NCBI GenBank assembly: GCA_963736855.1
Contig: CAVTQK010000009.1
Coordinates: forward strand, 288,001 to 352,000
Source of the DNA: an uncultured delta proteobacterium
GTDB taxonomy: Bacteria > Desulfobacterota > Desulfobacteria > Desulfobacterales > UBA2156
Reading direction: 5' to 3'
Length of the DNA: 64,000 bases
This document shows, piece by piece, positions 3,886 through 63,605 of this stretch (positions are counted from its first letter, which is position 1; each line of letters starts with the position of its first letter). A program made the position numbers and the translations under genes. The notes beneath the pieces are model-generated. The model was not told the DNA's origin. It did no database searches and was given only the letters and a program-made list of their open reading frames with translations.

Positions 3886-4132
3886 GTTTCCCTCCTTCTG
3901 GTGCGTTAAGATCGAAACGTACAACAATTGTCGCATATCGGAAGACGGACAGTTCTGTCAAGATCGGTTCATGATTGAGGATATTCGAAACAGTCTGTTT
4001 GTTCTCTACTCACTTATGGTGTAGGAATAAAATTCTCGTTCGTAACGCAGTAGAATCTAAAAAAATCGGATCTCAAAGATAAGGCCGTATGCTTTGTTTT
4101 CCCATCGTACCCTTTTCCCACGGGAGGAAATC

Positions 4133-6799: not shown

Positions 6800-8815
6800 A
6801 TGGCCTCGAAACCGACCGATGATGAATTAAAACAAAAGATTAACAAGCTTGAGAAGGAAGCTTCCGAGCTGAAGCAAACGATTGAATCGCTGCGAGGCAG
6901 TGAGAGCAAATTCCACGCTTTTTTCGGGAATAGTCTGGACGCATTGTTCATCACGATGCCGGATGGTCGGATCCTGGAAGCAAATCCCGCAGCCTGCAGG
7001 ATGTTCGGTTACACGGAAGAGGAGCTAATCCAAGGAGGAAGAAATTTAGTGGTGGCCCTGGATGATCCGAGATTGCCCCCTGCTTTGGAAGAAAGACGCC
7101 TGACGGGTAAATTCATCGGGGAACTGACCTTTAAGCGTAAAGACGAGACCAGATTTCCGGCGGAAATCAGCTCTGTGATTTTTAAAAGCAGAGAAGACGA
7201 TGAACGGGTCAGCATCATCATCCGGGATATTCAAAGGCGCAAGGCCACGGAGCAGGCGTTGCGGGAAAGCGAGGAACGGTTTCGTTTTCTGACCGAAACC
7301 GTATCGGATATCATTTGGACGGTGGATCTAAATTTGAGCACCACCTACGTAAGCCCTTCCATCGAGAGGGTCCTGGGTTTCACGCCGGAGGAACGAAAAA
7401 GACAACGGGTGGAGGAGGTTTTGACACCGCGATCCCTGAAGTTGATCCAAGTATTGTTTGCCGAGGAACTTGCAAAAGAGAAAGACAAGTCGGTGGACCC
7501 GGGTCGTTCCATGACCATCGAAGTCGAGTATTATCACAAGGACGGGACGACTGTTTGGCTTGAAAACGCCATGAAATGGATCCGTGATAAAAAAGGCGCC
7601 ATTATCGGGATTCATGGGGTGTCACGGGATATTTCGAAGCGCAAGAAGGCACAGATCGAGCGCGATAAACTGCATGCTCAACTCATACAGGTTCAAAAAA
7701 TGGAATCGGTGGGCAGGCTTGCGGGAGGGGTGGCCCATGATTTCAACAACATGCTGGGGGTCATCCTGGGTCGAGTGGAAATGATGCTCATGGGAATGAA
7801 ACCAGGAGATTCTTCTTTTGAGGATTTGGAGGAGATCCAAAAAGCGGCTCGGCGTTCGGCGGATCTTACCCGACAGCTTCTGGCTTTTGCACGAAGGCAA
7901 GCGATTGCGCCCAAGGTATTGGATCTCAACGATGTGGTGGAGGGGATGCTTAGCATGCTTCGGCGTTTGATCGGAGAGAATATCGACCTCGTATGGCATC
8001 CCGATACCCGGATTTGGCCGGTGAAGATGGACCCGGCCCAGGTGGATCAGATCCTTGTCAATCTGTGTGTGAATTCCAAAGATGCGATTGCCGGGTCAGG
8101 AACCGTCACCATCGAAACGGAAAACGTGATCTTCGATGATGCCTATTGCGAAAAACATGCGGGGTCTAAGCCGGGGCAATACGTCCTGCTGGCGGTCAGC
8201 GACGACGGCTGCGGAATGGATAAAGAAACACAATCGCATCTTTTTGAACCTTTTTTCACCACGAAGGAAGTGGGAAAAGGGACCGGCTTGGGTCTGGCCA
8301 CCGTTTACGGCATTGTCAAGCAGAACAACGGCTATGTCGATTTCCAGAGTGACCGGGGTCAAGGGACCACCTTTCGGATTTATATCCCAAAAAATGAAGG
8401 GGATGTTGTCAAGGAAGCGGCGGCAGGTTCCACGGAAAAGCCCAGGGGTCGTGGAGAGACGATTCTTCTGGTTGAAGACGAACCCGGGATACTGGCCATG
8501 GGAAAGGCGATGCTGGAGCGATTGGGGTATGCCGTTTTTTCGACCTCGGATCCGTATTATGCCCTGGATTTGGCCAAAAAACATTCCGGAAAATTTCATC
8601 TATTGATGACCGATGTCGTGATGCCCAAGATGAGCGGAAAAGACTTGGCCGAACAGGTGAAGGTCCTGAACCCGAAGATTAAGATTTTATTTATGTCCGG
8701 TTATACCGCGGACGTGATCGTCCACCATGGCGCAATCGATGGAGGCACGCGGTTCATCCAGAAGCCTTTTTCGATGAAGGATCTTTCCGCAGCCATTCAG
8801 CAGGCGCTGGGATAA
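6800..8815 (+). CDS. Hybrid PAS-PAS sensor histidine kinase / response regulator
   Basis: Two PAS domains, H-box AGGVAHDFNN, FEPFFTTK/GTGLGL, receiver LLVED...TDVVMP...KPF. Confidence 0.95.
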   Translation: MASKPTDDELKQKINKLEKEASELKQTIESLRGSESKFHAFFGNSLDALFITMPDGRILEANPAACRMFGYTEEELIQGGRNLVVALDDPRLPPALEERRLTGKFIGELTFKRKDETRFPAEISSVIFKSREDDERVSIIIRDIQRRKATEQALRESEERFRFLTETVSDIIWTVDLNLSTTYVSPSIERVLGFTPEERKRQRVEEVLTPRSLKLIQVLFAEELAKEKDKSVDPGRSMTIEVEYYHKDGTTVWLENAMKWIRDKKGAIIGIHGVSRDISKRKKAQIERDKLHAQLIQVQKMESVGRLAGGVAHDFNNMLGVILGRVEMMLMGMKPGDSSFEDLEEIQKAARRSADLTRQLLAFARRQAIAPKVLDLNDVVEGMLSMLRRLIGENIDLVWHPDTRIWPVKMDPAQVDQILVNLCVNSKDAIAGSGTVTIETENVIFDDAYCEKHAGSKPGQYVLLAVSDDGCGMDKETQSHLFEPFFTTKEVGKGTGLGLATVYGIVKQNNGYVDFQSDRGQGTTFRIYIPKNEGDVVKEAAAGSTEKPRGRGETILLVEDEPGILAMGKAMLERLGYAVFSTSDPYYALDLAKKHSGKFHLLMTDVVMPKMSGKDLAEQVKVLNPKIKILFMSGYTADVIVHHGAIDGGTRFIQKPFSMKDLSAAIQQALG

Positions 8816-49797: not shown

Positions 49798-50116
49798 CGT
49801 TTCAGTCGTGTCCACGCCGACTTACGCCTGGCTGCGAACGCCGCCCGGGACGGTGCCATGGATATCGAGCGGTTCAAGGCGCGGCTCCGGCGCTGCCGTG
49901 GGCAGATCACCGCCGTCATCGCCTGCCGGACCGACCCGAGCACCGTCTTTGTGCTCAATTTGAGCTTCGACATAATTGCAGTACGCTTTTTTGGGGGCCG
50001 GACAACCTGTCAGCCAGGCACTCAAGGGTGGAAAACGGCATCTTTGCGGAGGCAAGTTTTATCGGGCTGCTTTTTGAGGCTCGCTGTTAGGATGGCACTT
50101 GAATAGGATAGGCGAT

Positions 50117-50947
50117 TCAGTGCCGGTTGATGGGCACTCGGCCGGGATCACCCACGAACGGAAGGATCAGAAGGCGAGGCAGGGAAAGCTTTTGCGGATC
50201 ACGGAATTGAGACAGACCGATCACCATATCATTGTGCCCCTTGTCGGGCTGGTCTTTGTAGGTACCAAAAAGCCGATCCCACCAGGGCAGGTTGAATCCG
50301 TAGTTGCTGTTGGTCTCGCGGATGATGACAGAGTGGTGGACCCGGTGCATGTCCGGCGTTACCACGAGCAGCCGGAGTATCCGGTCCATTTTTTCTGGGA
50401 TGCGGATGTTGCTGTGATTGAACATGGAGGTTGCGTTGAGGACGACTTCGAATATCAGCACGGCCAGCGGTGGCGCTCCGAGCGCGGCCACGGCCGACAG
50501 CTTGATGGCCATGGACACAATGATTTCGATAGGATGAAACCGCAGCCCAGTGGTCATATCGAAATCCAGATCCGCGTGATGCACCATATGCAGCCGCCAA
50601 AGCGTTGGAATGGCGTGATGCAAAACATGCTGCGCATAAACCGTAAGGTCCAGCGCAATCACACCCGCAACGACCTGCATCCATTCGGACATGGATGTGT
50701 GATTGAGCAACCCCCAGTTCTGTTCGGACGCGATATGAGCCAAACCGATAGGCAGAATGGGAAAAATCAAAACTACCGACAAGGGATTCAAAACCACGAT
50801 GGTCAAATTGGCGAACCATCGTCGGACCTTGGAGGTAAGCAAGCGTCTTCTTGGAGCAAGGATTTCCAAAACAGCGAGTACGACAAAAATAACCATAAAC
50901 GCGCCGAATCGAACCACTGTTTCATTTGTCAGGAAAATACATTCCAT
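50117..50947 (-). CDS. Sterol desaturase / fatty acid hydroxylase superfamily protein
   Basis: His boxes HVLHH, HMVHH, RFHP, FNHSN, HRVHH; NYG..WWDRLFGTY. Confidence 0.9.
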   Translation of the reverse strand: MECIFLTNETVVRFGAFMVIFVVLAVLEILAPRRRLLTSKVRRWFANLTIVVLNPLSVVLIFPILPIGLAHIASEQNWGLLNHTSMSEWMQVVAGVIALDLTVYAQHVLHHAIPTLWRLHMVHHADLDFDMTTGLRFHPIEIIVSMAIKLSAVAALGAPPLAVLIFEVVLNATSMFNHSNIRIPEKMDRILRLLVVTPDMHRVHHSVIIRETNSNYGFNLPWWDRLFGTYKDQPDKGHNDMVIGLSQFRDPQKLSLPRLLILPFVGDPGRVPINRH

Positions 50948-50987
50948 TGCCTTGTCTTCGATAAGAATGGTGTGATTGCTTCTTCGA

Positions 50988-51335
50988 TTAAAAAGCGATG
51001 ACCTTTTCCGCCCTGACCGTAAGATCCGTCAATTCAATCAGAGTGCCGCGCCGCGCGCCCTCGGCGATTTCTTCATCCTTCATTCCCCTCGCGTCCATGC
51101 ACGTGCCGCACAGGATGACCTCGCCCTTGCGAACAATCGGTTTCAACATGCGTTCTATATTGTAGTACCCTTGAGGGGTCTGCTGTCCGGTCTTGGCGCA
51201 TAGAACGGCATCGCCCAGCAAGAAAATGGACAGTTCCACAGTTTCACGAGCAACAAGCTGGTCTGCCAAACGCAAAGCATTGTAGCTGCGCTCACTGCCG
51301 TATGGTGGATCGTTTAGGATGATGAGCATTTTCAT
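50988..51335 (-). CDS. DsrE/DsrF-like (YchN-type) sulfur-relay protein
   Basis: PPYGSE..YNALRLA, FLLGDAV, CGTCMDARG; GGAGG RBS. Confidence 0.88.
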   Translation of the reverse strand: MKMLIILNDPPYGSERSYNALRLADQLVARETVELSIFLLGDAVLCAKTGQQTPQGYYNIERMLKPIVRKGEVILCGTCMDARGMKDEEIAEGARRGTLIELTDLTVRAEKVIAF

Positions 51336-51410
51336 TTTTTGTCCTCCAGAGTCGATAGAGATTTTCAACTTTCACAATCTATGTGGTCTGGCCTTACGCG
51401 AATGTGGTGG

Positions 51411-52109
51411 TTAAACCGTCGCAGTATCTTTTGACACCCGCGACACTTTCAGGAGCTTGGGAATGAAAAAGGAAAATATGAAAAGCGCAAGGGAGAGAAG
51501 GACCTTCCAGCTCAACAGCTCCTCCCAGCGGCCGGCGGCCCATATGTCCTTTATCGTTCCAACGAAAAAGGTAAATATGAAGGTGCCCACCATGATGCCC
51601 AGCGCCGTGCCGGAAAAGTAGTCCCAAAAACGCACCTTGGTCAGCCCCATGCCGAAATTCATTAGAGTAAACGGGAAATAGACCAGCCGCAAGTAAAGGA
51701 CCGTGGCAAAGCCGTTGCGCCCGATGGCGTCATCGTATCGTTTCAACCTGTTGCCGACGATGGAGGCGGCGAAATCCCGGCCCAAGTAACGCCCGATCAG
51801 AAAGGCGAGGCTGGCGCCGATCATGGCCGCAATCCAGACATATAGGAAGCCCCAATAGGGTCCGAAGATGGCGGCGCCCAAAGCCGTCAGAAGCGTGCCG
51901 GGAAGGAAAAGACACACACCGGCCGCGTAGATAAACACGAACGCCAATGGTGCCCATATTCCCGCGGCTTTCAAAAACAGCCCCAGTTGTTCGGCAGTGA
52001 GGTACTGTTTGGCTGGCGAAAAACGGACCAGGTAAATCGCCGCCACAACGAACAGGATCAGGATGGATACCTTCATCAGCGCGCTTTTTCTTTTTTCATC
52101 GGTTTGCAT
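51411..52109 (-). CDS. TVP38/TMEM64 (DedA superfamily) membrane protein
   Basis: LPGT, AIFG, GA.LAFLIGRYLGR, LRLVYFPF..NFG.GLT; start may be 52145. Confidence 0.88.
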   Translation of the reverse strand: MQTDEKRKSALMKVSILILFVVAAIYLVRFSPAKQYLTAEQLGLFLKAAGIWAPLAFVFIYAAGVCLFLPGTLLTALGAAIFGPYWGFLYVWIAAMIGASLAFLIGRYLGRDFAASIVGNRLKRYDDAIGRNGFATVLYLRLVYFPFTLMNFGMGLTKVRFWDYFSGTALGIMVGTFIFTFFVGTIKDIWAAGRWEELLSWKVLLSLALFIFSFFIPKLLKVSRVSKDTATV

Positions 52110-52232
52110 GACGAAACCTTGTTGACACACCTTCCGGATGTCCACGGTCTATTGGATTATTTGTAAGCTCTTCGTCCATGCCTCGGATATATCTATGTAT
52201 TATCGTATTTGCTGCAAATGATCGTTTCAGGA

Positions 52233-52502
52233 TCAGCTTATTGCCACATGGCGACGGATCGCGGCCTCGAAAGCTTCCCCGCTGATCGGACAGCCCTGGA
52301 TGATAATCTCATCGGCAAGCATCAAGGCCGGTGCGGCAGGCAGACCGGATGCAATGAATTCCGTCGTGCTGTAGTATTCCCTGGGCTTTGACAGTGTCTC
52401 GATTTCCAAAGCGTATTTTTTTCCCAACCTGGGAAGCATCTCCATGAAGCCGCCTCAGGTTTTACCCATCGGCTCGTTTAAAAAGACGCGCAGCTTAACC
52501 AT
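52233..52502 (-). CDS. tsoC: NEPxGxxU-motif selenoprotein, copy 2 (89 aa, Sec16 = TGA 52455-52457)
   Basis: MVKLRVFLNEPMGKT-U-GGFMEMLPRLGKKY...LPAAPAL; joins two ORF-track fragments in frame; SECIS-like TTCCCA-GGT-TGGGAA at 52421-52435. Confidence 0.85.
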
Positions 52503-52524
52503 TTTATTTCTCCGATCAGACGCA

Positions 52525-52845
52525 TTAAGGTTTCTTGAAAAGACGCCCCAAGATTCCTTTATGCGGTGGCTCGGGCTCGGCCAGACCCAACTGGCGGCAA
52601 ATGTGAACCTCCACCTCATGTTCGGACACATCGGCTCCTTCGACGACAACTTCATCGCCCACCATGACCGCCGGTGCCACGGGCAAATCTAGCTCGAAGT
52701 ACGCGTCGGTCTGATATTCCGCCTTGGCTTTTGAGGTGACGTCGATGTCGATGGCGTATTTTGCGCCCAACCTGGGCATCATTTGCTTGAAATGCTTTCA
52801 GGGTTTGCCGTTGGGCTCGTTAAGAAAAAACCGGACTTTGAGCAT
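52525..52845 (-). CDS. tsoC: NEPxGxxU-motif selenoprotein, copy 1 (106 aa, Sec16 = TGA 52798-52800)
   Basis: MLKVRFFLNEPNGKP-U-KHFKQMMPRLGAKY...LPVAPAV; GAGGAG RBS; SECIS-like TGCCCA-GGT-TGGGCG at 52764-52778. Confidence 0.88.
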
Positions 52846-52878
52846 GATCATCTCCTCTATTGTTTGGTTTCTCATGGA

Positions 52879-54648
52879 TCACTGTGCGGAAACGGACCTC
52901 TTTAATTCGGCCATGCGGCTCAGGAAGGGTTCGGGAGGCAAAAAATCCACCAGGCGCAGCTCGGTGCGTTCTTCACCCCGCGCATCCAGAAATACGATGG
53001 TGGGGACTCCCTTGACACCGTATTGCCTCAACAGTTCCTCATGAAATGGGTTTCCTCCCTGGGTCACATTGATTTTAACCATTATAAAATCCTTTTGCCG
53101 CGCTTGCCGGACTACCTCGGGGTGATGAAAGGTCACATTTTCAAGCTCCCGGCACGGCGTGCACCAGTCGGCGTAAAAGTCGATGATGACCGGTTTCTTC
53201 TGCGCGGCCGCCTGCCGCAGGGTTTGTTCCGAATAGGTGTGCCACTCGATGCTTGGTCCGCGCATGGCCCAGGTGGTCACCCAAAAAGTGGCCAGCACAA
53301 TGCAGGCTGTTCCCACGAAGGTCTTGAGCCAGGGAAAGGCCCTGAAACTCGCCTGGTTTTTATCGAGCCAGCCCAGGTGTAACCCGGCGGCGAAGGCGAC
53401 CAAAACCGGCACAACAATTTTAAGCGCCTGGGGCAGGATCGGCCGAATGAAGTATGCCGCCATGCCAACCAAGACCCAACCCATGAGTTTTCGCACCCAA
53501 ATCATCCATCCGCCGGCCCGTGGTAGTCGCTGTAATTGACCGGAAAAGATCGCCAGCACGAAAAGGGGAAGGCCCAATCCCAGGCTTAGGACGAAAAAAA
53601 TCAAAAAACCAAGCCACGGGTTTCCCATCCCGGCCACCCAGGTAAGGAGGCCCAGCACGAAGGGGCCGATGCAGGGCGCGGCCACAACGCCAAGGGTGAG
53701 ACCCATGAACAGACTGCCGAAGTACCCGGTGTAGGATTTGCCGGCGGCCTGGGTCAGGACGCCGGGTAGGCGCAGTTCCCAAAGGCCAAAAAGGCTGGTG
53801 GCGAATAGGACCAGGATGCCGGCCACCAAGGTCAACACGATGGGATTCTGCAGCATGGCCCCCATCAACCCACCAGTTAGTGCGGCCACCACCCCCAAGG
53901 TTGAGTTTGTCAGAGCTAAACCCATCAGGTAGCAAATCCCATGCAAAACAAGTTTGACTTGGCCGGGCCTGTCTTGGGCTGTGCGGCCTCCAAAAAAAGA
54001 GACCGTGATCGGAATCATCGGATAAACGCAAGGAGTCATGTTCAGGGCCAGTCCGCCGGCGAAAATGGCCAAAAGGGTCCAAAGCATGGACCAACCCTGG
54101 AGGGAGCGGTCGCCCATAGGTTCATTTGACGCTTCGCCAAGCGATGTTAGTCCCGCCGGACTACTCGCGATTGGTAAACCCTGTTCCTGCCATTTTGGGA
54201 ATCCGTAGGGGTCGCGGTACACATTTTTATAACCAAGCGATGCGGCCACCCGGGCCGCCGAGTCGCTGCGGACTCATGTCAGCCCCGCTCAGTAAAAGAC
54301 AAGTACGCGCTCCTTGTCCGGGCCTAAAAATGTATTCAGTTCCCCGGCCTTGCGCCAACGCGCCCACCAAGTAGGCTCCATTGAAAAATTGAGCGCCCCC
54401 TTGATATGCCCTGTGCGATATTCCCACTCCTGGCGGGTGTCGATCAGCAGCAGTTCGGAGGGCTTTTTTTCATATCTTTCGGATAGCGCTTCGGTGGTGA
54501 TGATCTTGTACCCGCCGGCGTCAGCCTCGGCCATAACATCTTCCCATGTGGCCTGCCCGGGTGCGATGGGGCGTTGCGCGTACCAGACAATACCAATGGT
54601 GAACAATACGGCCGCCAGCGCGAGAAAATATGATCTTTTTATTTTCAT
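52879..54648 (-). CDS. tsoB: Rhodanese / DsbD-membrane / thioredoxin fusion selenoprotein (589 aa, Sec120 and Sec125)
   Basis: ORF-track pieces 54289-54648 and 52879-54249 are in one frame through VFY-U-AGLT-U-VRS (TGA 54289-54291 and 54274-54276); IDTR..EY..GHIKGA; TPCVYP and APCIGP; WCTPC; SECIS-like hairpin 54236-54267. Confidence 0.9.
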
Positions 54649-54973
54649 GTCCGATCCCTGATCCCGCTACATTTTGCCAGATAGAAATGTATCCATTTGA
54701 GTTTTGTCGATAGCCACAATGCGAAAGGTGGCTTTTAACCGTCTCTTCTGAAAAGGAGTATTGATACTGATGGCAGTAATCCATGATCGTTCGGTACGCC
54801 GAAACAATCTTGCGGGTCATTTCAGCGCATGACTCCCTATCCTCGACGCATTTGTCCGGATGCCATTTGGTCACCAGTCTCCTGTATCTTGATTTGATCG
54901 ATGCCATGGTGGCGGTTTCCGGAAGCTCCAAAATTCTTTTTGCATCGATGATTTCCTGATATTTATGATCCAT
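54521..54973 (-). CDS. Small J-domain (DnaJ-like) protein; 3' end uncertain
   Basis: ILEL...IKSRYRRLVTKWHPDK...AY; frame runs 128 nt into tsoB. Confidence 0.8.
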   Translation of the reverse strand: MDHKYQEIIDAKRILELPETATMASIKSRYRRLVTKWHPDKCVEDRESCAEMTRKIVSAYRTIMDYCHQYQYSFSEETVKSHLSHCGYRQNSNGYISIWQNVAGSGIGHENKKIIFSRAGGRIVHHWYCLVRATPHRTRAGHMGRCYGRG

Positions 54974-55430
54974 CCTCGGCGATTCGTTTCCCTTCTCTCA
55001 AGAGTTTCGTGAGCAAAAATTTGGCCCCTCTGCGCGATAAACCAAGCCGTTCCGCCAATTCTTTATCGTTCAGAGTCCCATGCGTTTTTAAAAGCGTACG
55101 CACTTCCGCTTCCAGTTCCTCCAGCCAATCCTCAAACAGCACCAGCAGATCAGGATCGGCTATAGCCATTAGTTGTTTGGACTGCGCGACCTTGTCCACC
55201 AGGCTTTGGCACATCTGCGTTGGGTCGACACCTTCGCCCATGCACTCGGCCAGTCACAAGTGCACCATGCTGGACACCTTATCCCCCTCGGACTGATTGA
55301 TCAGGTTCAGAAGAAAACGCTCGCGGGCATTATCATCCAGGTCCGCAAGAAGACTTCCCGTGACAGTCGTGATTTTTGACAAGGCCTCTTCCGGAACCAT
55401 GCGGGCAATAATTTCAAAAAGCTCATCCAT
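54963..55430 (-). CDS. tsoA: LULAxC-motif selenoprotein (155 aa, Sec59 = TGA 55254-55256) with C-terminal HTH-like segment
   Basis: MDELFEIIAR...SSMVHL-U-LAECMGEGVDPTQMC...LAERLGLSRRGA; AGGAGG RBS; SECIS-like TGGG-CGA-AGGTG-TCG-A-CCCA at 55221-55240. Confidence 0.88.
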
Positions 55431-55453
55431 AGGAATTGGTTGCCTCCTATTGA

Positions 55454-55819
55454 TTAAAAAGTTCTTCGTGTGGATAAAAGGTCCGTCGCCACATCGTTTA
55501 AGATTTTCAAGACATTCAGAATTCTTTCATCTGCCAATTCATAATAAATGAATGGTCCCTCGCGTTCCACCTTGACCAGCAGAGAGTGCTTCAATTCCTT
55601 CAAATGGTGGGATACCAGCGGTTGGGACAGATCCAATTCCTCGACAATGGCGGATACTGACTTCTTGCTTCCGCTGATGAGCACCAAAATTCTTAGGCGG
55701 TTGCAGTCCGACAGACTCTTGGCCAGAAAGGCTGCTCTTTGAAGCTGGGCAATATCCGACTGGCATCGAGTCAGAAACCCTTCGTTTAGATCCGCTGAAT
55801 TCCGCATGTCTTTGTCCAT
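55454..55819 (-). CDS. ArsR/SmtB-family transcriptional regulator
   Basis: KSLSDCNRLRIL, LSQPLVSHHLKELK, VEREG..IYY; TAATG overlap with trxB. Confidence 0.92.
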   Translation of the reverse strand: MDKDMRNSADLNEGFLTRCQSDIAQLQRAAFLAKSLSDCNRLRILVLISGSKKSVSAIVEELDLSQPLVSHHLKELKHSLLVKVEREGPFIYYELADERILNVLKILNDVATDLLSTRRTF

Positions 55820-56781
55820 TATTCAACGACACTTCGGCATGTCTGATCACCTTTGCGGGTTTCAACATAGTGCGCGGCCGCCAAGGCCGCCGTACAACCA
55901 TCCGCGGCGGCAAGGACAATCTGGTTGGCGTATTTTTGCCGGAGGTCGCCCACGGCAAAAATGCCGGAAATGTCGGTTTCGCATTTTTCATCCGTGATGA
56001 CATATCCAGTACTGTTGACCTTGATCCCTGCGGGAACCAGTTGATTGTTCGGCGCAAAGCCGACAAAAATGAAAACGCCTTCGGTATCAAGATCCCGCTG
56101 ATCGCCGGTTTGCGTGTTTTTCAAGGAGATGTCACGGACGCCGTTGTCATCGCCATTGATTGTGGTGACGACCGTATTGTATATGATTTCAATCCGATGC
56201 TCGGCGAAAACGCGCTGCTGAAGGATGCGGCTGCCTCGAAAGGCCTCCCGTCGGTGAATGAGGTAAACCTTACGGGTGATTTTTGAAAGGTAAAGGGCAT
56301 CTTCCAGAGCTGTATCGCCGCCACCTACGACAGCAACGACTTTATCGCGGAAGAAGAAACCGTCGCAGGTCGCGCAATAAGAAACCCCCTTGCCGAAATT
56401 CTCGTTTTCGCCTGGTATGTTCAACTTTCGGGCGGTGCCGCCGGCTGCCAGAATGATCGCGTGGGCTTTTAAAAGAGTGCCGTCGGCAAGACGCACGGAA
56501 TGGTATTCAATTCCAGGTTCTGTCGCGATGGCCTCCTTTTCCAAAATCTCAAGGTTATACCGTTTGGCATGCTGCAGAAATTTATCGCAAAGATCGAAGC
56601 CGCCGATTTCAATAAAACCAGGATAATTCTCCACTTCCTTGGTGATCGCCACTTGCCCGCCAAAAACACCCCTTTCAATCAGCACGGTCTTCAGCGCCGC
56701 GCGCATGGCATAAATCCCAGCGGTTAAACCCGCGGGGCCTCCACCGACAATGATCAAATCGTAAAGCTGATTATCCGGCAT
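55819..56781 (-). CDS. trxB: Thioredoxin-disulfide reductase
   Basis: GGGPAG, VENYPG, GVSYCATCDG, GGGDTA, HRR..FR, FAVGD. Confidence 0.95.
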   Translation of the reverse strand: MPDNQLYDLIIVGGGPAGLTAGIYAMRAALKTVLIERGVFGGQVAITKEVENYPGFIEIGGFDLCDKFLQHAKRYNLEILEKEAIATEPGIEYHSVRLADGTLLKAHAIILAAGGTARKLNIPGENENFGKGVSYCATCDGFFFRDKVVAVVGGGDTALEDALYLSKITRKVYLIHRREAFRGSRILQQRVFAEHRIEIIYNTVVTTINGDDNGVRDISLKNTQTGDQRDLDTEGVFIFVGFAPNNQLVPAGIKVNSTGYVITDEKCETDISGIFAVGDLRQKYANQIVLAAADGCTAALAAAHYVETRKGDQTCRSVVE

Positions 56782-56830
56782 ATCGTCCTTCCTGTGCTTG
56801 ACCAATAAGAGGTGAACTGAATCAGTTAGC

Positions 56831-56877
56831 AAACAGCATATAGATATTTATTTATATGTTGTTTTAAATTTTGTCAA
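56831..56877 (-). promoter_or_regulatory. Promoter/operator of the selenoprotein operon: 16-2-16 inverted repeat plus -35 TTGACA
   Basis: aaacagcatatagata-tt-tatttatatgttgttt (2 mismatches) at 56831-56864; minus-strand TTGACA at 56872-56877. Confidence 0.7.
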
Positions 56878-57078
56878 TATTTTTCCGGATTCTGGTCGAC
56901 CCAGCTCGTAGGAAGCATGAAGAAGGTCTGCTTTTACAACAGCTCATTGAAAAGAACCACACGACGGTTGACATCCTTTCATTTGGCCGAAGACCTGGCT
57001 ACGGCCTGGTATCGCGACTATATCAAAACGCCGGTGAAGTGATTTGTACGCGTCTTGCCCGGATCAGCGCATTGGGGG

Positions 57079-58264
57079 CTATCCCTCGGAAGGGGCGGTC
57101 AGGGTCTCCCAGATATCTTCGACAAGGAGCGGATTGAAAATGCGGACGCCTCGGACGTTGAACCGCTGCTCGCCGTTATAGAGGACCGCGCCGGCCGTGA
57201 CCCGTTTGATTTCCAACGTCTGAAAACGCTCCAGTCCCTTGATGAAATCCACGGAAAACGTGCTGGCGGACTTGATCTCGACCGGCGTGAGCGCGCCCTT
57301 TTCCCTGATGAGCAGATCGACCTCGTTGCCGTGGGAGTCGCGGAAGAAATAGATCTCCGGCCTGATCCCCTTGTTGAGAGCGCCCTTCACGATGTCCGCA
57401 ATGATGAGGTTCTCATACAGATTGCCGCGCAAGGGATCGCGGGATGCCTGTTCCTGCCGTGTGGATGCCCAGCAGAAAGGCGGCGAGACCCACATCCGTG
57501 AAAAATATCTTGGGGGACTTGATCACCCGCTTTCGGACGTTCTCGAAAAACGGGGGCAGTTCGAACACGACATACGAGGCTTTCAGCACGGAGAGCCAGT
57601 TTCTGATCGTCGTGCTGGAAGCGCCCACGTCGTTGCCGAGCGAAGCGAGGTTGACGACCTGTCCCACCCGGCCGGCCAACAGGGTGAGGAATTTCTGAAA
57701 CTGCGACAGATCGCGCAACTGGATCAAGGCGCGCACATCGCGTTCGACGTAGGTTTGCAGGTAGCCGTTGAAAAACCTGCGCGGTTCGAGACCCTCTTCG
57801 TGAAGCCGCGGAAAACATCCGCGGCCGATCAGGTCGAAGGGGTCCCGTGCCGACTCATAACGGCGAAGTTCATGAAGGGAGAAAGGCCACAGGGTCAGCA
57901 TGGCGGTCCGGCCCGCCAGCGACTGGCTGATCGCCTCATGCAGTTGCGGCTGATGGCTGCCGGTCAGGATAAACCGCCCGCGTCTTCTGTTCTTGTCGAC
58001 CATTCCCTGGATGTAGGAAAGCAGAGCCGGGAGACGTTGCACCTCGTCCAGGATGCCGCCGCCTTCCATCTGGCCGAGGAATCCCCGCGGATCGGCTTCG
58101 GCCGCCATGCGGACATCCGGGTCTTCCAGGGAAAAGTACGGTTTGTCCGGAAACGTCATCCGGGCCAGCGTGGTCTTGCCCGATTGGCGGGGACCCAGGA
58201 TGGTCACCACGGGATACTCCGCGGCGGACCGGACCAGTTCTTCTGTGATGTCTCGAGTGATCAT
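57079..58264 (-). pseudogene. AAA+ ATPase with DUF4143 / PD-(D/E)xK-like C-terminus, +1 frameshift near 57453
   Basis: GPRQSGKTT, LDEVQ, LTGS, SLAGR, TYVERD, KIFFTDVG; second frame LYEN...FRD..EVD..PVEIK; span 1186 nt = 3n+1. Confidence 0.85.
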
Positions 58265-59202: not shown

Positions 59203-61332
59203 ATGCGCATGAATAGTGACACCTTCAAGGACATCGAGAAGCTCGAATCCGACCTCTGGGAGGCTGCCGACAACCTGCGGGCCAACTCCAAACTGACCTC
59301 CAGCGATTACTTCATGCCGGTGCTTGGTGTGATCTTTTTACGTCATGCGACCAATCGTTTCGACGCAGCCCACCGACAGATCAAGGCCGACCAGACCGGC
59401 GGCAAGATGCCCAAGCGAAAGGTCCTGCCGGCCGACTACATCGCGCGTCGAGCACTTTACCTTCCTGAACCGTCGCGCTACGACTGGATCATGCAGCAGG
59501 CCGCCGTCAGCGGCGTCGACCTACCCCGGATAGTCACCGAGGCCATGACCGCCATCGAGGCGTCGTTCGAGCCGCTCGTGGGAATCTTGCCCAAGGATTA
59601 CGGCATCTTCGAGCCCAAGGTGCTCGAAGACCTTATGCGCCTATTCAACAGCGAACGCATCCGGCAGGCCAACGGCGATGTCTTTGGCCGTATCTACGAA
59701 TACTTTCTGGCGAAGTTCTCGATCCAGAAGGCCCACGACAACGGCGAGTTCTTCACGCCGTCCTCGCTCGTGCAGACCATCGTCAACGTGATCGAGCCCG
59801 ACCATGGTACCGTGTTCGATCCGGCCTGTGGTTCGGGCGGAATGTTCGTACAGTCGAGCCACTTCATCGAGCACGAGGGCGGCGACACGGCCAAGAAGGT
59901 CGTCTTCTACGGCCAGGAGAAGAACCGTGACACCATCCGCATCGCCAAGATGAACCTCGCGGTGCATGGGCTGGAAGGCAAGATCGCCGAGGCCATCACC
60001 TACTACCAGGACGAGCACAACCTCGCGGGCCAGTGCGACTTCGTGATGGCCAACCCGCCCTTCAACGTGGATCTGGTGGACGCCGAGCGCATCAAGGGCG
60101 ACCCGCGCCTGCCCTTCGGCCTGCCGGGCGTGAACAAGCAGAAGAAGGTCGGAAACGGCAACTACCTCTGGATCTCCTATTTCTGGGGCTACCTCTCCCC
60201 AAAGGGCCGCGCCGGCTTTGTCATGTCCTCCCAGGCCTCCAGTGCCGGACATGGCGAAAAGGAGGTGCGCCGCAAGATCGTGGAGACGGGCGACGTGGAT
60301 GTGATGATCTCCATCCGCTCCAACTTCTTCTACACGCGGACGGTTCCGTGTGAGTTGTGGCACTTCGACCGGGCCAAGCCGCCCGAGCGCAGGGACAAGG
60401 TGCTGATGCTCGACGCTCGCAATGTCTTTCGCAAGGTCACGCGCAAGATCTACGATTTTTCGCCCGAACAAATGCACAACCTCGCGGCGATTGTCTGGCT
60501 CTATCGAGGGCAGCAGCAGCGCTTTCTCTCTCTGGTGAAGGATTACCTCAGCCGGGTCTGCGCCGAGAGCGCCGTCATCCCTGGGACTCTGACATCCTTC
60601 CAAAACACGCTCGCGGATTTACGCGACAGCTTCGATGCGCTGGCCAAGGCGACGGCGAAACACGCCGAGCTCGATGACGCGAAAAAACAGGCGCTCGCCG
60701 ATGCCGTGGCGGAACTGCGCGAAGCCGACGCACTATACAAGACCGACGCGCAAAAACTCCTCGTGAGTTTCGCAGCATTCGGCCGCAAGCATATCAAGAC
60801 GCTGCCCGGGAATAACGACGCCCAGCACGCGGCACGCAAAGCCTTCGACCCGCATGCCGAGGCGATTCGTGGCCTCGCCAAGCAGGTGGACCTGCTCTAC
60901 AAGCTCGCCGCGCGCGTGGCGGACCTGGGCGCGGAACTGGCAGCGGAAGATACGATCTCCGCCGTTTACGACCGGCGCGCCACGGGGCGGCTGGTCAAGC
61001 AGCTCGACTCGGAGCGGAAGGCCACGGTCGAGCAGTTGAAGCGTGCCGTCTATTTCCACCGGCAGGTGGTGTGGTTGCAGGACCGTTTCCCCAAGACCGA
61101 GCTGCAAGCCGTGCCCGGGCTGGTGAAACTGGTGGACCGCGCGGAGATTGAAGCCGCCGACTGGAGCCTTACCCCCGGCCGCTACGTGGGCGTGGCTCCG
61201 CCCGAGGAGGACGAGGACTTCGACTTCGAGCAGACCATCCGCGACATCCACACCGAGCTGGCAGAGCACAACAAGGAGGCGGCGGAATTAGCGGCGAAAA
61301 TCCAGGCAAACTTCGAGGGGTTGGGGATATGA
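59203..61332 (+). CDS. hsdM: Type I restriction-modification methyltransferase subunit
   Basis: LWEAADNLR, GRIYEYFL, GEFFTP, DPACGSGGMF, ANPPFN, WSLTPGRYVG. Confidence 0.93.
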   Translation: MRMNSDTFKDIEKLESDLWEAADNLRANSKLTSSDYFMPVLGVIFLRHATNRFDAAHRQIKADQTGGKMPKRKVLPADYIARRALYLPEPSRYDWIMQQAAVSGVDLPRIVTEAMTAIEASFEPLVGILPKDYGIFEPKVLEDLMRLFNSERIRQANGDVFGRIYEYFLAKFSIQKAHDNGEFFTPSSLVQTIVNVIEPDHGTVFDPACGSGGMFVQSSHFIEHEGGDTAKKVVFYGQEKNRDTIRIAKMNLAVHGLEGKIAEAITYYQDEHNLAGQCDFVMANPPFNVDLVDAERIKGDPRLPFGLPGVNKQKKVGNGNYLWISYFWGYLSPKGRAGFVMSSQASSAGHGEKEVRRKIVETGDVDVMISIRSNFFYTRTVPCELWHFDRAKPPERRDKVLMLDARNVFRKVTRKIYDFSPEQMHNLAAIVWLYRGQQQRFLSLVKDYLSRVCAESAVIPGTLTSFQNTLADLRDSFDALAKATAKHAELDDAKKQALADAVAELREADALYKTDAQKLLVSFAAFGRKHIKTLPGNNDAQHAARKAFDPHAEAIRGLAKQVDLLYKLAARVADLGAELAAEDTISAVYDRRATGRLVKQLDSERKATVEQLKRAVYFHRQVVWLQDRFPKTELQAVPGLVKLVDRAEIEAADWSLTPGRYVGVAPPEEDEDFDFEQTIRDIHTELAEHNKEAAELAAKIQANFEGLGI

Positions 61333-62474
61333 CAAAACCAAAGAATAGTGGATCAGACACCTCCGATGCACGCATGTCGCGTGGACGCATCCGCAATGGC
61401 GCATCTTTCCCTGCGCCGCCTTCCCGCGCGGGATTACCTGCGGGTTACGCTGCATTGCTGGAAAAGATCAAAGAGCGTATCAGCACTGAGCGGCTCAAGG
61501 CGGTCATGGCCGCCAACTCCGCCATGGTGCTGCTTTACTGGGACATCGGAAACATGATTCTGGACCGGCAACAAAAGGAAGGCTGGGGCGCGAAGGTGAT
61601 AGACCGCCTTTCCGCAGACCTTCGCCGGGCGTTTCCGGACATGACCGGCCTGTCGCCCCGGAATCTCAAGTACATGCGGAGCTTTGCCGCTGCCTGGCCG
61701 GATGCGGCAATTGTGCAAGAGGCGCTTGCACAAATCACCTGGTATCATAATCTGGCGTTGATGGAGAAACTGGATACTCCTGAAGATCGCCTTTGGTATG
61801 CTGCAAAGACGATCGAAAATGGCTGGTCCCGTAACATCCTCGCTTTGCAGATTGAATCCCGCGCTCACGAACGCCACGGAAAGGCCGTGAACAACTTTGC
61901 CGTCACCCTGCCGCCCGCCGATTCCGACATGGCCGCCCAGGTTTTCAAGGACCCATACCTCTTCGACTTTCTCGGCACCGCCGATCCGCGCCGCGAGCGG
62001 GAGGTCGAGCAGGCCCTGGTGGACCACATCCAGCGATTTTTGCTGGAACTCGGGGCGGGATTTGCCTTCGTCGGACGGCAAGTCCATCTGGAGATCGGCG
62101 ACCACGATTTCTACGTTGATCTGCTGTTCTACCACCTGAAGTTGCGCCGCTATGTAGTGGTGGAACTTAAAGCAGTGCCCTTTGACCCGGGCTTTGTCGG
62201 AAAACTGAACATGTATCTTTCCGCTGTGGACGATCTGTTGAAGCATCCGGATGACCAACCGGCCATCGGCCTGCTCCTCTGCCGCTCCAAGAATAAGCTC
62301 ATCGTCGAGTATGCCCTGCGCGGCTTCACCCGACCCATCGGCGTGGCCGAATGGGAGACCCGCCTGACCAAGAGCCTCCCCAAGGAACTCAGAGGCAGCC
62401 TGCCGACCGTGAAGGAGATCGAGGCGGAATTGGCGGTGAAAATTCAGGAGAACGTCGAGGAGTTTGGAGCATGA
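61329..62474 (+). CDS. YhcG / DUF1016 family PD-(D/E)xK nuclease-domain protein
   Basis: LYWDIG, GWGAKVIDRLS.DL, FKDPY.FDFL, LLELG.GFAFVGRQ, DLLFYH, VVVELK. Confidence 0.92.
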   Translation: MTKPKNSGSDTSDARMSRGRIRNGASFPAPPSRAGLPAGYAALLEKIKERISTERLKAVMAANSAMVLLYWDIGNMILDRQQKEGWGAKVIDRLSADLRRAFPDMTGLSPRNLKYMRSFAAAWPDAAIVQEALAQITWYHNLALMEKLDTPEDRLWYAAKTIENGWSRNILALQIESRAHERHGKAVNNFAVTLPPADSDMAAQVFKDPYLFDFLGTADPRREREVEQALVDHIQRFLLELGAGFAFVGRQVHLEIGDHDFYVDLLFYHLKLRRYVVVELKAVPFDPGFVGKLNMYLSAVDDLLKHPDDQPAIGLLLCRSKNKLIVEYALRGFTRPIGVAEWETRLTKSLPKELRGSLPTVKEIEAELAVKIQENVEEFGA

Positions 62475-63605
62475 GATGGCAACTTCATCAGTTGCAGGAC
62501 CTTTGTGCCGAAATGACATCTGGAGGCACTCCGTCTACCTCGCAGTCTCAATACTACGGAGGGGATATCCCGTGGCTACGAACGCAGGAGGTCAATTTCA
62601 ATCGAGTTACCGACACAGAGATCACGATCACCGAGGACGGCCTAATCAACTCAACCGCGAAGTGGATTCCAGAGAACAGCGTAATCATTGCGATGTATGG
62701 GAATTCTGCAGGGAGAGTGGCCACCAACCAGATTCCACTGACTACGAACCAGGCGTGCTGTAACTTGATCGTTGACCCTCGAAAGGCCGACTACCGGTTC
62801 ATCTATTATCGGTTAATGCTCGACTATGACGTCCTGCATCAAATGGCAAAAGGCTCGGCTCAGAACAACCTCAATGCAGGCCAGATCAAGGCTTACGCAA
62901 TCCAGACGCCGACAGTCGAAGTGCAAGAGCGCATCGCCGACATCCTCTCCGCCTACGACGACCTGATCGAGAACAACCGGCGGCGGATGGCGCTGTTGGA
63001 GGAGGCGGCGCGGCAGCTCTACCGCGAGTGGTTCGTCCGCCTGCGCTTCCCCGGCCACGAGCACACCCGCATCACCAACGGTGTGCCGGAGGGGTGGGAG
63101 CGACAGCCCTTCGAAACAGCTCTCGTCCTTCAGCGTGGTTTCGACCTGCCTATTCAAGAATAGAGAAGATGGCGATGTGCCGATTTATGGCTCAACCGGC
63201 ATTAACGGATTCCACAGCAAGGCAAAAGTTACAGGTCCAGGTGTGGTGACGGGACGAAGTGGCACGTTGGGTGAGGTGCATTACATACCGCGTGACTTTT
63301 GGCCCTTGAACACAGCACTGTGGGTTAAAGAGTTTAAGCGTGTCACACCGCTTTTCGCTATGTTTTTGATGCGTGAGATGGACCTTAGGCAGTATAATGG
63401 TGGGGTTTCGGTTCCGACTCTCGATCGAAAAACGGTGCATAAGGCGGAAGTGTTGATACCTTCGAAGCGGCTGGTGATATCCTTCGAGGAGTTTGCCTCG
63501 CCACTTTTTCATCAGATCGGTACATTGACCGCGCAAACCGAGAAACTCCGCGCGGCCCGCGATCTCTTGTTGCCGCGCCTGATGAGCGGGGAGATCGCCG
63601 TATGA
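62471..63605 (+). pseudogene. hsdS: Type I R-M specificity subunit, +1 frameshift near 63156 (in-frame TAG at 63161-63163)
   Basis: SGGTPS, NQAC, Q.RIADILSAYDDLIENNRRR, VPEGWE; second frame VPIYGSTG...RDLLLPRLMSGEI; span 1135 nt = 3n+1. Confidence 0.88.

Follow-up and report, generated by a model that had tools for sequence, protein, structure and literature searches.

We analysed a window of 64,000 nucleotides (nt) from an uncultured delta proteobacterium of the Desulfobacterales (assembly GCA_963736855.1, contig CAVTQK010000009.1, positions 288,001 to 352,000) and describe here the gene tsoB, which lies on its minus strand and is predicted to encode a selenoprotein. The reading frame of this gene contains two UGA codons situated five codons apart, and its product combines a rhodanese domain with a DsbD-type membrane core and a thioredoxin-like domain. 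Positions are counted from the first nucleotide of the window. The gene and its parts are the following.

52879..54648, minus strand: tsoB coding sequence, 589 codons and a TGA stop, with two in-frame UGA codons read as selenocysteine (Sec, U) (joined-frame translation; profile NF045694)
54577..54633, minus strand: N-terminal hydrophobic helix, residues 6-24, after MKIKR; signal anchor or signal peptide (hydropathy 1.91; model helix 3-25)
54184..54495, minus strand: rhodanese domain, residues 52-155 (PF00581, 50.8 bits, cut-off 22.2; predicted local distance difference test score, pLDDT, about 80-93; matches to rhodaneses in the PDB)
54289..54291, minus strand: UGA-1, residue U120, at the canonical catalytic-Cys position of rhodaneses (alignment to solved rhodaneses; TGA in every full-length locus)
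54274..54276, minus strand: UGA-2, residue U125, where rhodaneses of the C-x4-C subfamily have their second Cys (C/C in 119/168 alignments; TGA in every full-length locus)
53434..54084, minus strand: DsbD transmembrane core (DsbD_TM), residues 189-405, with C207 and C326 (PF02683, E 5.4e-41)
52981..53247, minus strand: thioredoxin-like, DsbD-gamma-like domain, residues 468-556, with W-C496-T-P-C499 (PF13899, Thioredoxin_7, E 3.8e-19)

A single reading frame across two UGA codons

Two open reading frames (ORFs), one of 119 amino acids (54648..54289) and one of 456 amino acids (54249..52879), share one frame of the minus strand, and the only stops inside the joined frame (54648..52879) are the TGA codons at 54291-54289 and 54276-54274. 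When TGA is read as U, the frame yields 589 residues with the loop VFY-U-AGLT-U-VRS; its terminal stop is likewise TGA. The joined frame is far beyond what chance would give. An earlier inspection of the bare sequence (hereafter the sequence-only reading) had linked the two ORFs into one frame of 589 residues through these codons, and its coordinates proved correct: the protein matched the TsoB profile NF045694 end to end, residues 7-582 aligning to positions 3-571 of 572 at 987.4 bits (cut-off 805). A search of all six frames of the genome with the same profile gave 975.3 bits for tsoB.

The sequence-only reading had also placed the rhodanese domain where DsbD carries its Ig-like alpha domain. 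The DsbD model PRK00293 scored 258.6 bits, below its cut-off of 330, and its alignment began only at profile position 163 of 574, which indicates that the rhodanese domain does occupy the place of the alpha domain. The cysteines C207, C326, C496 and C499 (the last two within WCTPC) were invariant among 27 sequences. In a structure model, which was used for per-domain fold matches only, the C-terminal domain had its best match in the DsbD gamma domain (1uc7_A, E 1.5e-7, TM-score 0.80 on the target), with rhodanese structures next. Membrane anchorage, proposed at the same time, agrees with the hydrophobic helix at residues 6-24 that precedes the rhodanese domain. Judged by these sequence comparisons, the protein is almost certainly TsoB, a rhodanese/DsbD-fusion selenoprotein in which both UGA codons are decoded as Sec. 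The explanation that best covers all the findings, and which we regard as highly probable, is that the gene encodes a single two-Sec membrane protein of 589 residues, the TsoB of the 'three selenoprotein operon'.

TGA at both sites in related genomes

The genome (3.91 Mb in 25 contigs) has selB (381.4 bits), selA (617.5 bits) and selD (373.9 bits), each above its cut-off, and ARAGORN detected a tRNA-SeC (tca). The selD gene (G000 C15:107386-108306) carries one in-frame TGA, so that selD itself appears to encode a selenoprotein.

Matches above the TsoB cut-off were found in 26 of 401 genomes of the same phylum, at 30 places, each with exactly two TGA codons inside; weaker matches in these genomes covered the DsbD part only. 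Counting one locus per genome, with the four second copies left aside, FY-U-AGL[T/A]-U-VRSD[S/A]AARVA was present in 26/26 loci. A second set of 80 loci was kept from species-representative genomes: 62 are full-length, and in the other 18 the match is confined to the DsbD part. TGA occurred at both sites (U-x4-U) in all 62 full-length loci (63 copies), which speaks against separate genes with true stops, the outcome that the sequence-only reading had named as contrary to a fusion. The 26-locus and 62-locus sets overlap because they were drawn from the same species genomes. The closest relatives of the window TsoB are metagenome-assembled genomes (MAGs) of Desulfobacterota, and the 62 loci include MAGs of Thermodesulfovibrionales/Nitrospirota (47-49% identity) and one of Gemmatimonadota. 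Full-length copies also occur in Desulfacinum infernum DSM 9756 and Desulforhopalus sp. IMCC35007. Altogether both TGA codons were found in all 88 other copies; with the window copy these make 89 copies and 84 distinct 90-nt stretches.

We also compared the stretch 54000-54700 with assembly contigs (contigs, not raw reads) from public sequencing runs, and no other letter, and hence neither TGC nor TGT, was seen at either TGA codon. One contig (X1), possibly from the source sample, covers all 701 bases with 9 differences, none of them at the TGA codons. Contigs from X2 and X3 cover both codons as well; X2, X3 and X5 leave parts of the stretch without cover.

Several peculiarities of individual positions and copies were recorded. 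The base before UGA-1 (alignment A3 column 9, window position 54292) is C in 78 of the 84 distinct sequences, and the Tyr codon UAC to which it belongs has an entropy of 0.37, compared with about 1.0 for other Tyr/Phe codons; this fixed C may reflect a context effect on Sec decoding. The Gemmatimonadota copy (L097 766-2211) is interrupted by an extra in-frame stop in place of a conserved Trp (RQA*EH), perhaps an error or the sign of a pseudogene. One locus (L068) holds two tsoB copies (4025-4114 and 8407-8496), the genomes G051, G121, G148 and G169 have two copies each, and the copy of G360 (C14:444866-446519) is split into two overlapping matches.

Cysteine in place of selenocysteine at the rhodanese loop

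In alignments with the solved rhodaneses 6mxv, 2hhg, 3d1p and 1qxn (FYC-GG--FRS, FYC-AG--LRS), U120 falls on the catalytic Cys. Compared with these four structures, the TsoB loop has two additional residues, and U125 lies at the insertion, where they have no Cys counterpart. An exhaustive search of 1.84 billion representative sequences with the rhodanese part of the protein gave 2918 matches (E <= 0.001). Among the best 150 of these, 94 proteins (168 domain alignments) span the loop and 56 do not, and many of the latter are fragments of about 119 amino acids that stop right before the first UGA. In this subset Cys occupied both positions in 119 of the 168 alignments (FYCGGxxCxLSH type) and C/G was found in 10, the remainder being mixed. 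The sequence-only reading had put both TGA codons at Cys positions of rhodaneses that follow a C-x4-C pattern. For the closest subfamily this statement was right, as the 119 alignments demonstrate, whereas in the four best solved rhodaneses it held for the first U only. Among the homologues examined, none of the fused ones had Cys at both sites.

A Cys-based counterpart of the arrangement exists elsewhere in the genome (G000 C23:123681-124969; locus L003 1522-2831, minus strand). There, a membrane-anchored rhodanese of 167 amino acids with a C-x4-C loop (YCDGENCELS) adjoins a gene for a CcdA-like DsbD core. That the two modules are paired here independently, and on a Cys basis, lends support to a functional connection between a rhodanese loop of this kind and an electron conduit of the DsbD type. 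A TGA close to the end of the CcdA-like protein appears to be a true stop.

Two conserved hairpins behind the UGA codons

Two small RNA hairpins are predicted immediately downstream of the UGA codons as candidates for a Sec insertion sequence (SECIS).

54260..54275, minus strand: hairpin A, GAGUC-CGCAGC-GACUC, candidate SECIS for UGA-1 (pairing and synonymous-site comparison)
54242..54258, minus strand: hairpin B, GCGGCC-CGGGU-GGCCGC, SECIS-like element (pairing, covariation, folding energy)

The 5' arm of hairpin A includes the GA of UGA-2, and its loop starts 18 nt past UGA-1. Hairpin B, with a 6-bp stem, a 5-nt loop (CGGGU) and a folding energy of -10.9 kcal/mol, has its loop starting 21 nt past UGA-2 and 36 nt past UGA-1. 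Across the 84 distinct sequences, 99.6% of the 504 cells of the hairpin B stem were paired, a level reached by none of 500 shuffles, and sliding the 3' partner by 1-3 columns reduced the pairing to 24-76%. Compensatory changes were evident at pair 45:57 (GC 63, AU 15, CG 4, unpaired 2) and at pair 48:54 (CG 78, UA 5, UG 1), both of which involve the third bases of Ala and Val codons. The stem of hairpin B stays in Nitrospirota, although the residues encoded there shift from AARVA to AASLA. Hairpin A was paired in 96.2% of its cells. The third-position entropies at stem columns 30, 39, 48 and 54 were 0.48, 0.0, 0.37 and 0.33, compared with 0.9-1.8 at unpaired sites. These comparisons indicate that the hairpins downstream of the UGA codons are under selection.

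The minimum free energy fold of the whole 101-nt stretch was no better than those of shuffled sequences (z 0.29); the hairpins become apparent only through comparison across loci. An outer helix proposed by RNAalifold (columns 14-17 with 64-67) was dropped, as its pair 15:66 was unpaired in 28 of the 84 sequences, and a lower stem AGCGA/UCGCU around hairpin B was set aside because it occurs in the window only and is not conserved in other loci.

How the two hairpins would serve the two codons can be read in two ways, to which we assign about equal odds, somewhat short of an even chance each. The bacterial SECIS (bSECIS) model, as given in PMC13188914, places the element 16-37 nt behind its UGA, and by the constraints stated there hairpin B suits both UGA codons and hairpin A suits UGA-1. 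In the first reading hairpin B alone would recruit SelB for both codons, which lie 15 nt apart, and hairpin A, with the same near-even probability, would be a by-product of the conserved coding of U-V-R-S-D-S. The strong covariation belongs to hairpin B, whose spacings of 21 and 36 nt both fall within the range of the model, and the one compensatory pair of hairpin A is confined to a single lineage. Moreover, the loop of hairpin A is C-G-N-A-G-Y, so that its G mostly precedes C rather than G or U. A by-product of coding does not readily account for the nearly fixed third positions of the hairpin A stem (Val column 30, entropy 0.48; Asp column 39, 0.0), given that the synonymous sites of its loop vary freely (column 33, 1.42; column 36, 0.89) and that other Asp/Tyr/Phe sites have entropies of about 0.9-1.2. 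In addition, 16-37 nt is the range across genes and not a demonstrated tolerance of a single element.

In the second reading the two elements work in tandem: hairpin A would serve UGA-1 (loop at +18) and hairpin B would serve UGA-2 (loop at +21), with UGA-2 itself lying in the stem of hairpin A. In the window the two hairpins fold next to each other (-18.8 kcal/mol), synonymous variation is suppressed in both stems, and both agree with the loop, stem and spacing constraints quoted from PMC13188914. In Nitrospirota, hairpin B and a hairpin over UGA-2 are kept although the amino acids differ. On the other side, hairpin A is short (5 bp) and its energy lies near the limit of the model, constraints on protein and codon usage may account for part of its conservation, and it must melt before UGA-2 enters the A site.

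The tso operon and the surrounding genes

The window contains a complete tsoR-tsoA-tsoB-tsoC operon, with the following genes around tsoB.

55819..56832, minus strand: trxB, thioredoxin-disulfide reductase, directly upstream of tsoR (TIGR01292, 359.2 bits, cut-off 343.45)
55454..55819, minus strand: tsoR, ArsR/SmtB-type regulator (NF045707, 155.6 bits, cut-off 115)
54963..55430, minus strand: tsoA, LULAxC-motif selenoprotein, UGA at 55254-55256, motif HL-U-LAEC (NF045695, 215 bits read through, cut-off 170)
52525..52845, minus strand: tsoC copy 1, NEPxGxxU selenoprotein, UGA at 52798-52800 (NF045708, 151.1 bits, cut-off 45)
52233..52502, minus strand: tsoC copy 2, NEPxGxxU selenoprotein, UGA at 52455-52457 (NF045708, 119.1 bits, cut-off 45)
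51411..52145, minus strand: VTT/DedA-family membrane protein, downstream of tsoC (PF09335, E 5.7e-25)

A gene for a DsrE-like protein also lies downstream of the tso genes, and the next-best named match of TsoR was the sulfite sensor BigR. In 25 other loci of the phylum, examined with 1.5-kb flanks, TsoR was found in 21 (and as a weak match in one more), TsoA in 21, TsoC in 21 and the VTT protein in 12; none had a J-domain gene. The 62 full-length loci, with flanks of up to 6 kb, many of which are cut by contig ends, gave TsoC in 52, TsoR in 39 (7 of them merely 26-30% identical), TsoA in 33, the VTT protein in 23, a J-domain protein in 5, TrxB in 4 and DsrE in 3. TsoC is the tightest partner of tsoB.

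The two tandem tsoC copies (52233-52845) are about 42% identical to each other, and two copies were also present in loci L015, L018, L022 and L032. The ATG of tsoC copy 1 follows the TGA stop of tsoB after 33 nt and in the same frame (52843-52881, minus strand), and read-through would fuse the two proteins; as 16 of the 26 orthologues end in TAA or TAG, the match of frames is probably due to chance. Between tsoA and tsoB lies a 150-codon J-domain ORF (PF00226, with the HPD motif; 54521-54973, minus strand; its 3' end is putative), which shares 11 nt with the end of tsoA and, in another frame, 128 nt with the start of tsoB. With its presence in 0/25 and 5/62 other tso loci, it would be an occasional associate of the operon.

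Farther upstream, a gene for an AAA_14/DUF4143 ATPase (57079-58264, minus strand) seems to be split, with positions 1-96 of DUF4143 in one ORF and 96-159 in an overlapping other. It adjoins a type I restriction-modification cluster (HsdM, HsdS) with a YhcG/DUF1016 nuclease gene in between (59203-63163, plus strand).

Membrane topology and a possible mechanism

Hydropathy and the helices of the structure model indicate one N-terminal helix (6-24) and eight further helices between residues of about 186 and 463. The predicted outside loops (257-269 and 336-337) have no K/R, as against 2 and 3 in the predicted inside loops (289-316 and 427-443), a charge distribution that fits an N-in topology. 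With an even number of helices between them, the rhodanese and thioredoxin-like domains should be on the same side of the membrane. In DsbD, the soluble domains are periplasmic. By topology and homology to DsbD, both soluble domains of TsoB are thus predicted to be periplasmic, and the periplasmic location favoured by the sequence-only reading is consistent with this.

A mechanism of the following kind can be proposed. SelB carrying Sec-tRNA would be recruited by the hairpin or hairpins behind the UGA codons, and the protein would be inserted N-in, so that the anchor helix and the eight core helices leave the rhodanese and thioredoxin-like domains outside the cytoplasm. Electrons may then pass from cytoplasmic thioredoxin to C207/C326, on to C496/C499 and finally to U120/U125, the rhodanese domain taking the place and the role of DsbD alpha. 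The reduced diselenol might attack a chalcogen or metalloid species outside the cytoplasm, which it would reduce or transfer, and then close to a diselenide and be recharged. By analogy with DsbD, we hold an electron path of this type to be likely, and a diselenide recharged by the protein's own DsbD module, as the sequence-only reading had suggested, is a reasonable inference. Sulfur, selenium or another metalloid is suggested by the rhodanese fold, the ArsR/SmtB-type regulator and the genes for the DsrE-like and DedA-family proteins. Sulfane sulfur or polysulfide and selenium species would be our best guesses for the substrate, but any single one of them is doubtful. Expression is probably under the control of TsoR.

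It could also be supposed that TsoB plays the part of an ordinary DsbD, reducing partner proteins of the envelope (in cytochrome c maturation or disulfide isomerisation) and not a small chalcogen or metalloid species. Its transmembrane core and gamma-like domain are indeed DsbD-like, and DsbD-family proteins with exchanged N-terminal domains (ScsB, CcdA) serve various envelope reductases. However, TsoB has as its acceptor domain a rhodanese, and this fold bears small chalcogen adducts; its conserved neighbours are the selenoproteins TsoA and TsoC and an ArsR/SmtB regulator and not cytochrome maturation or Dsb genes; and BigR, the next-best named match of TsoR, is a sulfite sensor. We consider this alternative improbable.

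Far less plausible still is that the TGA codons are true stops, so that the locus would hold two separate genes or a pseudogene, namely a 119-residue rhodanese fragment and a 456-residue DsbD-like protein. Annotation might seem to favour such a view: most of the 93 matches in a large protein collection are C-terminal pieces of about 450-460 amino acids, many named DsbD or thioredoxin family protein, and many N-terminal fragments of about 119 amino acids end exactly before the first UGA. But the 119-residue piece would lose the entire active-site loop, protein conservation is continuous across both codons, and in all copies examined both codons are TGA and never TAA or TAG. We rejected this reading on that conservation, together with the full Sec machinery of the genome, the relatives with Cys at both sites and the match of the curated profile to one protein. 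A different genetic code for TGA was rejected, as TGA also ends tsoB itself and 10 of the 26 orthologues, and as table 11 gives genes of normal length in the neighbourhood.

Returning to a two-Sec TsoB whose Sec residues are inserted with the help of the hairpins and supplied with electrons by the DsbD module, several of our results weigh against it. Two fused homologues are without Sec, P0004 (587 amino acids, 899.5 bits; VFY-G-HGLA-R-VRS) and P0106 (591 amino acids, 802.9 bits, just below the cut-off; FY-G-ADLS-C-DRS); they also lack the first Cys, which means that the scaffold can persist without the Sec pair. In these proteins an intact DsbD module may carry a rhodanese loop that is inactive or has been re-purposed. 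The structure model was mediocre (mean pLDDT 67.9, predicted TM-score 0.47, pLDDT 44-55 in the membrane core) and gives no information on contacts between the domains. The trxB gene, although directly upstream of the operon in the window, stands beside tsoB in just 4 of the 62 other loci, which makes the trxB link weak. As for the RNA, the only compensatory pair of hairpin A is 30:37 (CG 78, GC 3, the latter in 3 related sequences), its stem encodes conserved residues, and an Rfam scan of 50000-57500 (E <= 5) returned no SECIS family, only two chance snoRNA-like matches.

Relation to described systems

The TsoB family is already known. PMC13188914, a review from 2026, lists it as UxxxxU with 2 Sec and describes the Tso 'three selenoprotein operon', crediting Haft & Tolstoy 2025 (mSystems 10:e0141724) for both. 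As the family, its two-Sec motif and the operon have been curated and published, the window protein is an ordinary member. It agrees with the curated TsoB (NF045694) in its full-length match above cut-off and its UxxxxU motif containing two Sec residues; the lineage (Desulfobacterota) fits as well, and so does the presence of TsoR, TsoA and TsoC in the operon. The differences are in local detail only: the J-domain ORF between tsoA and tsoB, the two tandem tsoC copies and trxB directly upstream.

With DsbD of E. coli (PRK00293; 1uc7, 2fwg, 1vrs) TsoB has in common the transmembrane core with two conserved Cys, the C-terminal thioredoxin-like CxxC domain and, presumably, the outward path of electrons from cytoplasmic thioredoxin; the Ig-like alpha domain with its redox Cys pair is replaced by the Sec-x4-Sec rhodanese. 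The C-x4-C rhodaneses, mostly multi-rhodanese proteins from metagenomes, have a loop of equal length with Cys where TsoB has Sec, and none of those seen had a DsbD core and thioredoxin domain attached. Other rhodanese selenoproteins (forms 1-4 in PMC13188914 and the UxU form in PMC1976440) carry Sec at the catalytic loop position, as TsoB does; they are single-domain or otherwise built, with the motifs UxxS, UxxG, CxU and UxU and without a DsbD module. The UxU form, reported among the rhodanese selenoproteins of Olavius symbionts in PMC1976440, is a precedent for two close Sec residues in a bacterial rhodanese, and one of our full-length tsoB loci belongs to 'Olavius sp. associated proteobacterium Delta 1'. 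Sud, the periplasmic polysulfide-sulfur transferase of Wolinella (1qxn), is an extracytoplasmic rhodanese handling sulfane sulfur and a weak match to the rhodanese part of TsoB (E 3.1e-4), but it is soluble, has a single Cys and a loop two residues shorter, and is without a reductase module. A functional analogy between Sud and TsoB may be inferred from this comparison.

We may tentatively combine these strands, as a possibility that we rate as less probable than not, into an unusual, compact recoding module of two abutting mini-hairpins, in which each Sec would have its own SECIS and the first hairpin would melt to expose the second codon, coupled to a diselenide reductase outside the cytoplasm that would act on sulfur or selenium species and be recharged across the membrane by its DsbD part. 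The practical value of the finding is that public gene calls mostly still split tsoB, and the annotation of this genome should carry a single selenoprotein of 589 residues, together with TsoA and the two TsoC selenoproteins. Beyond that, the conserved pair of hairpins behind two close UGA codons offers a compact system for how bacterial SelB treats neighbouring Sec codons.

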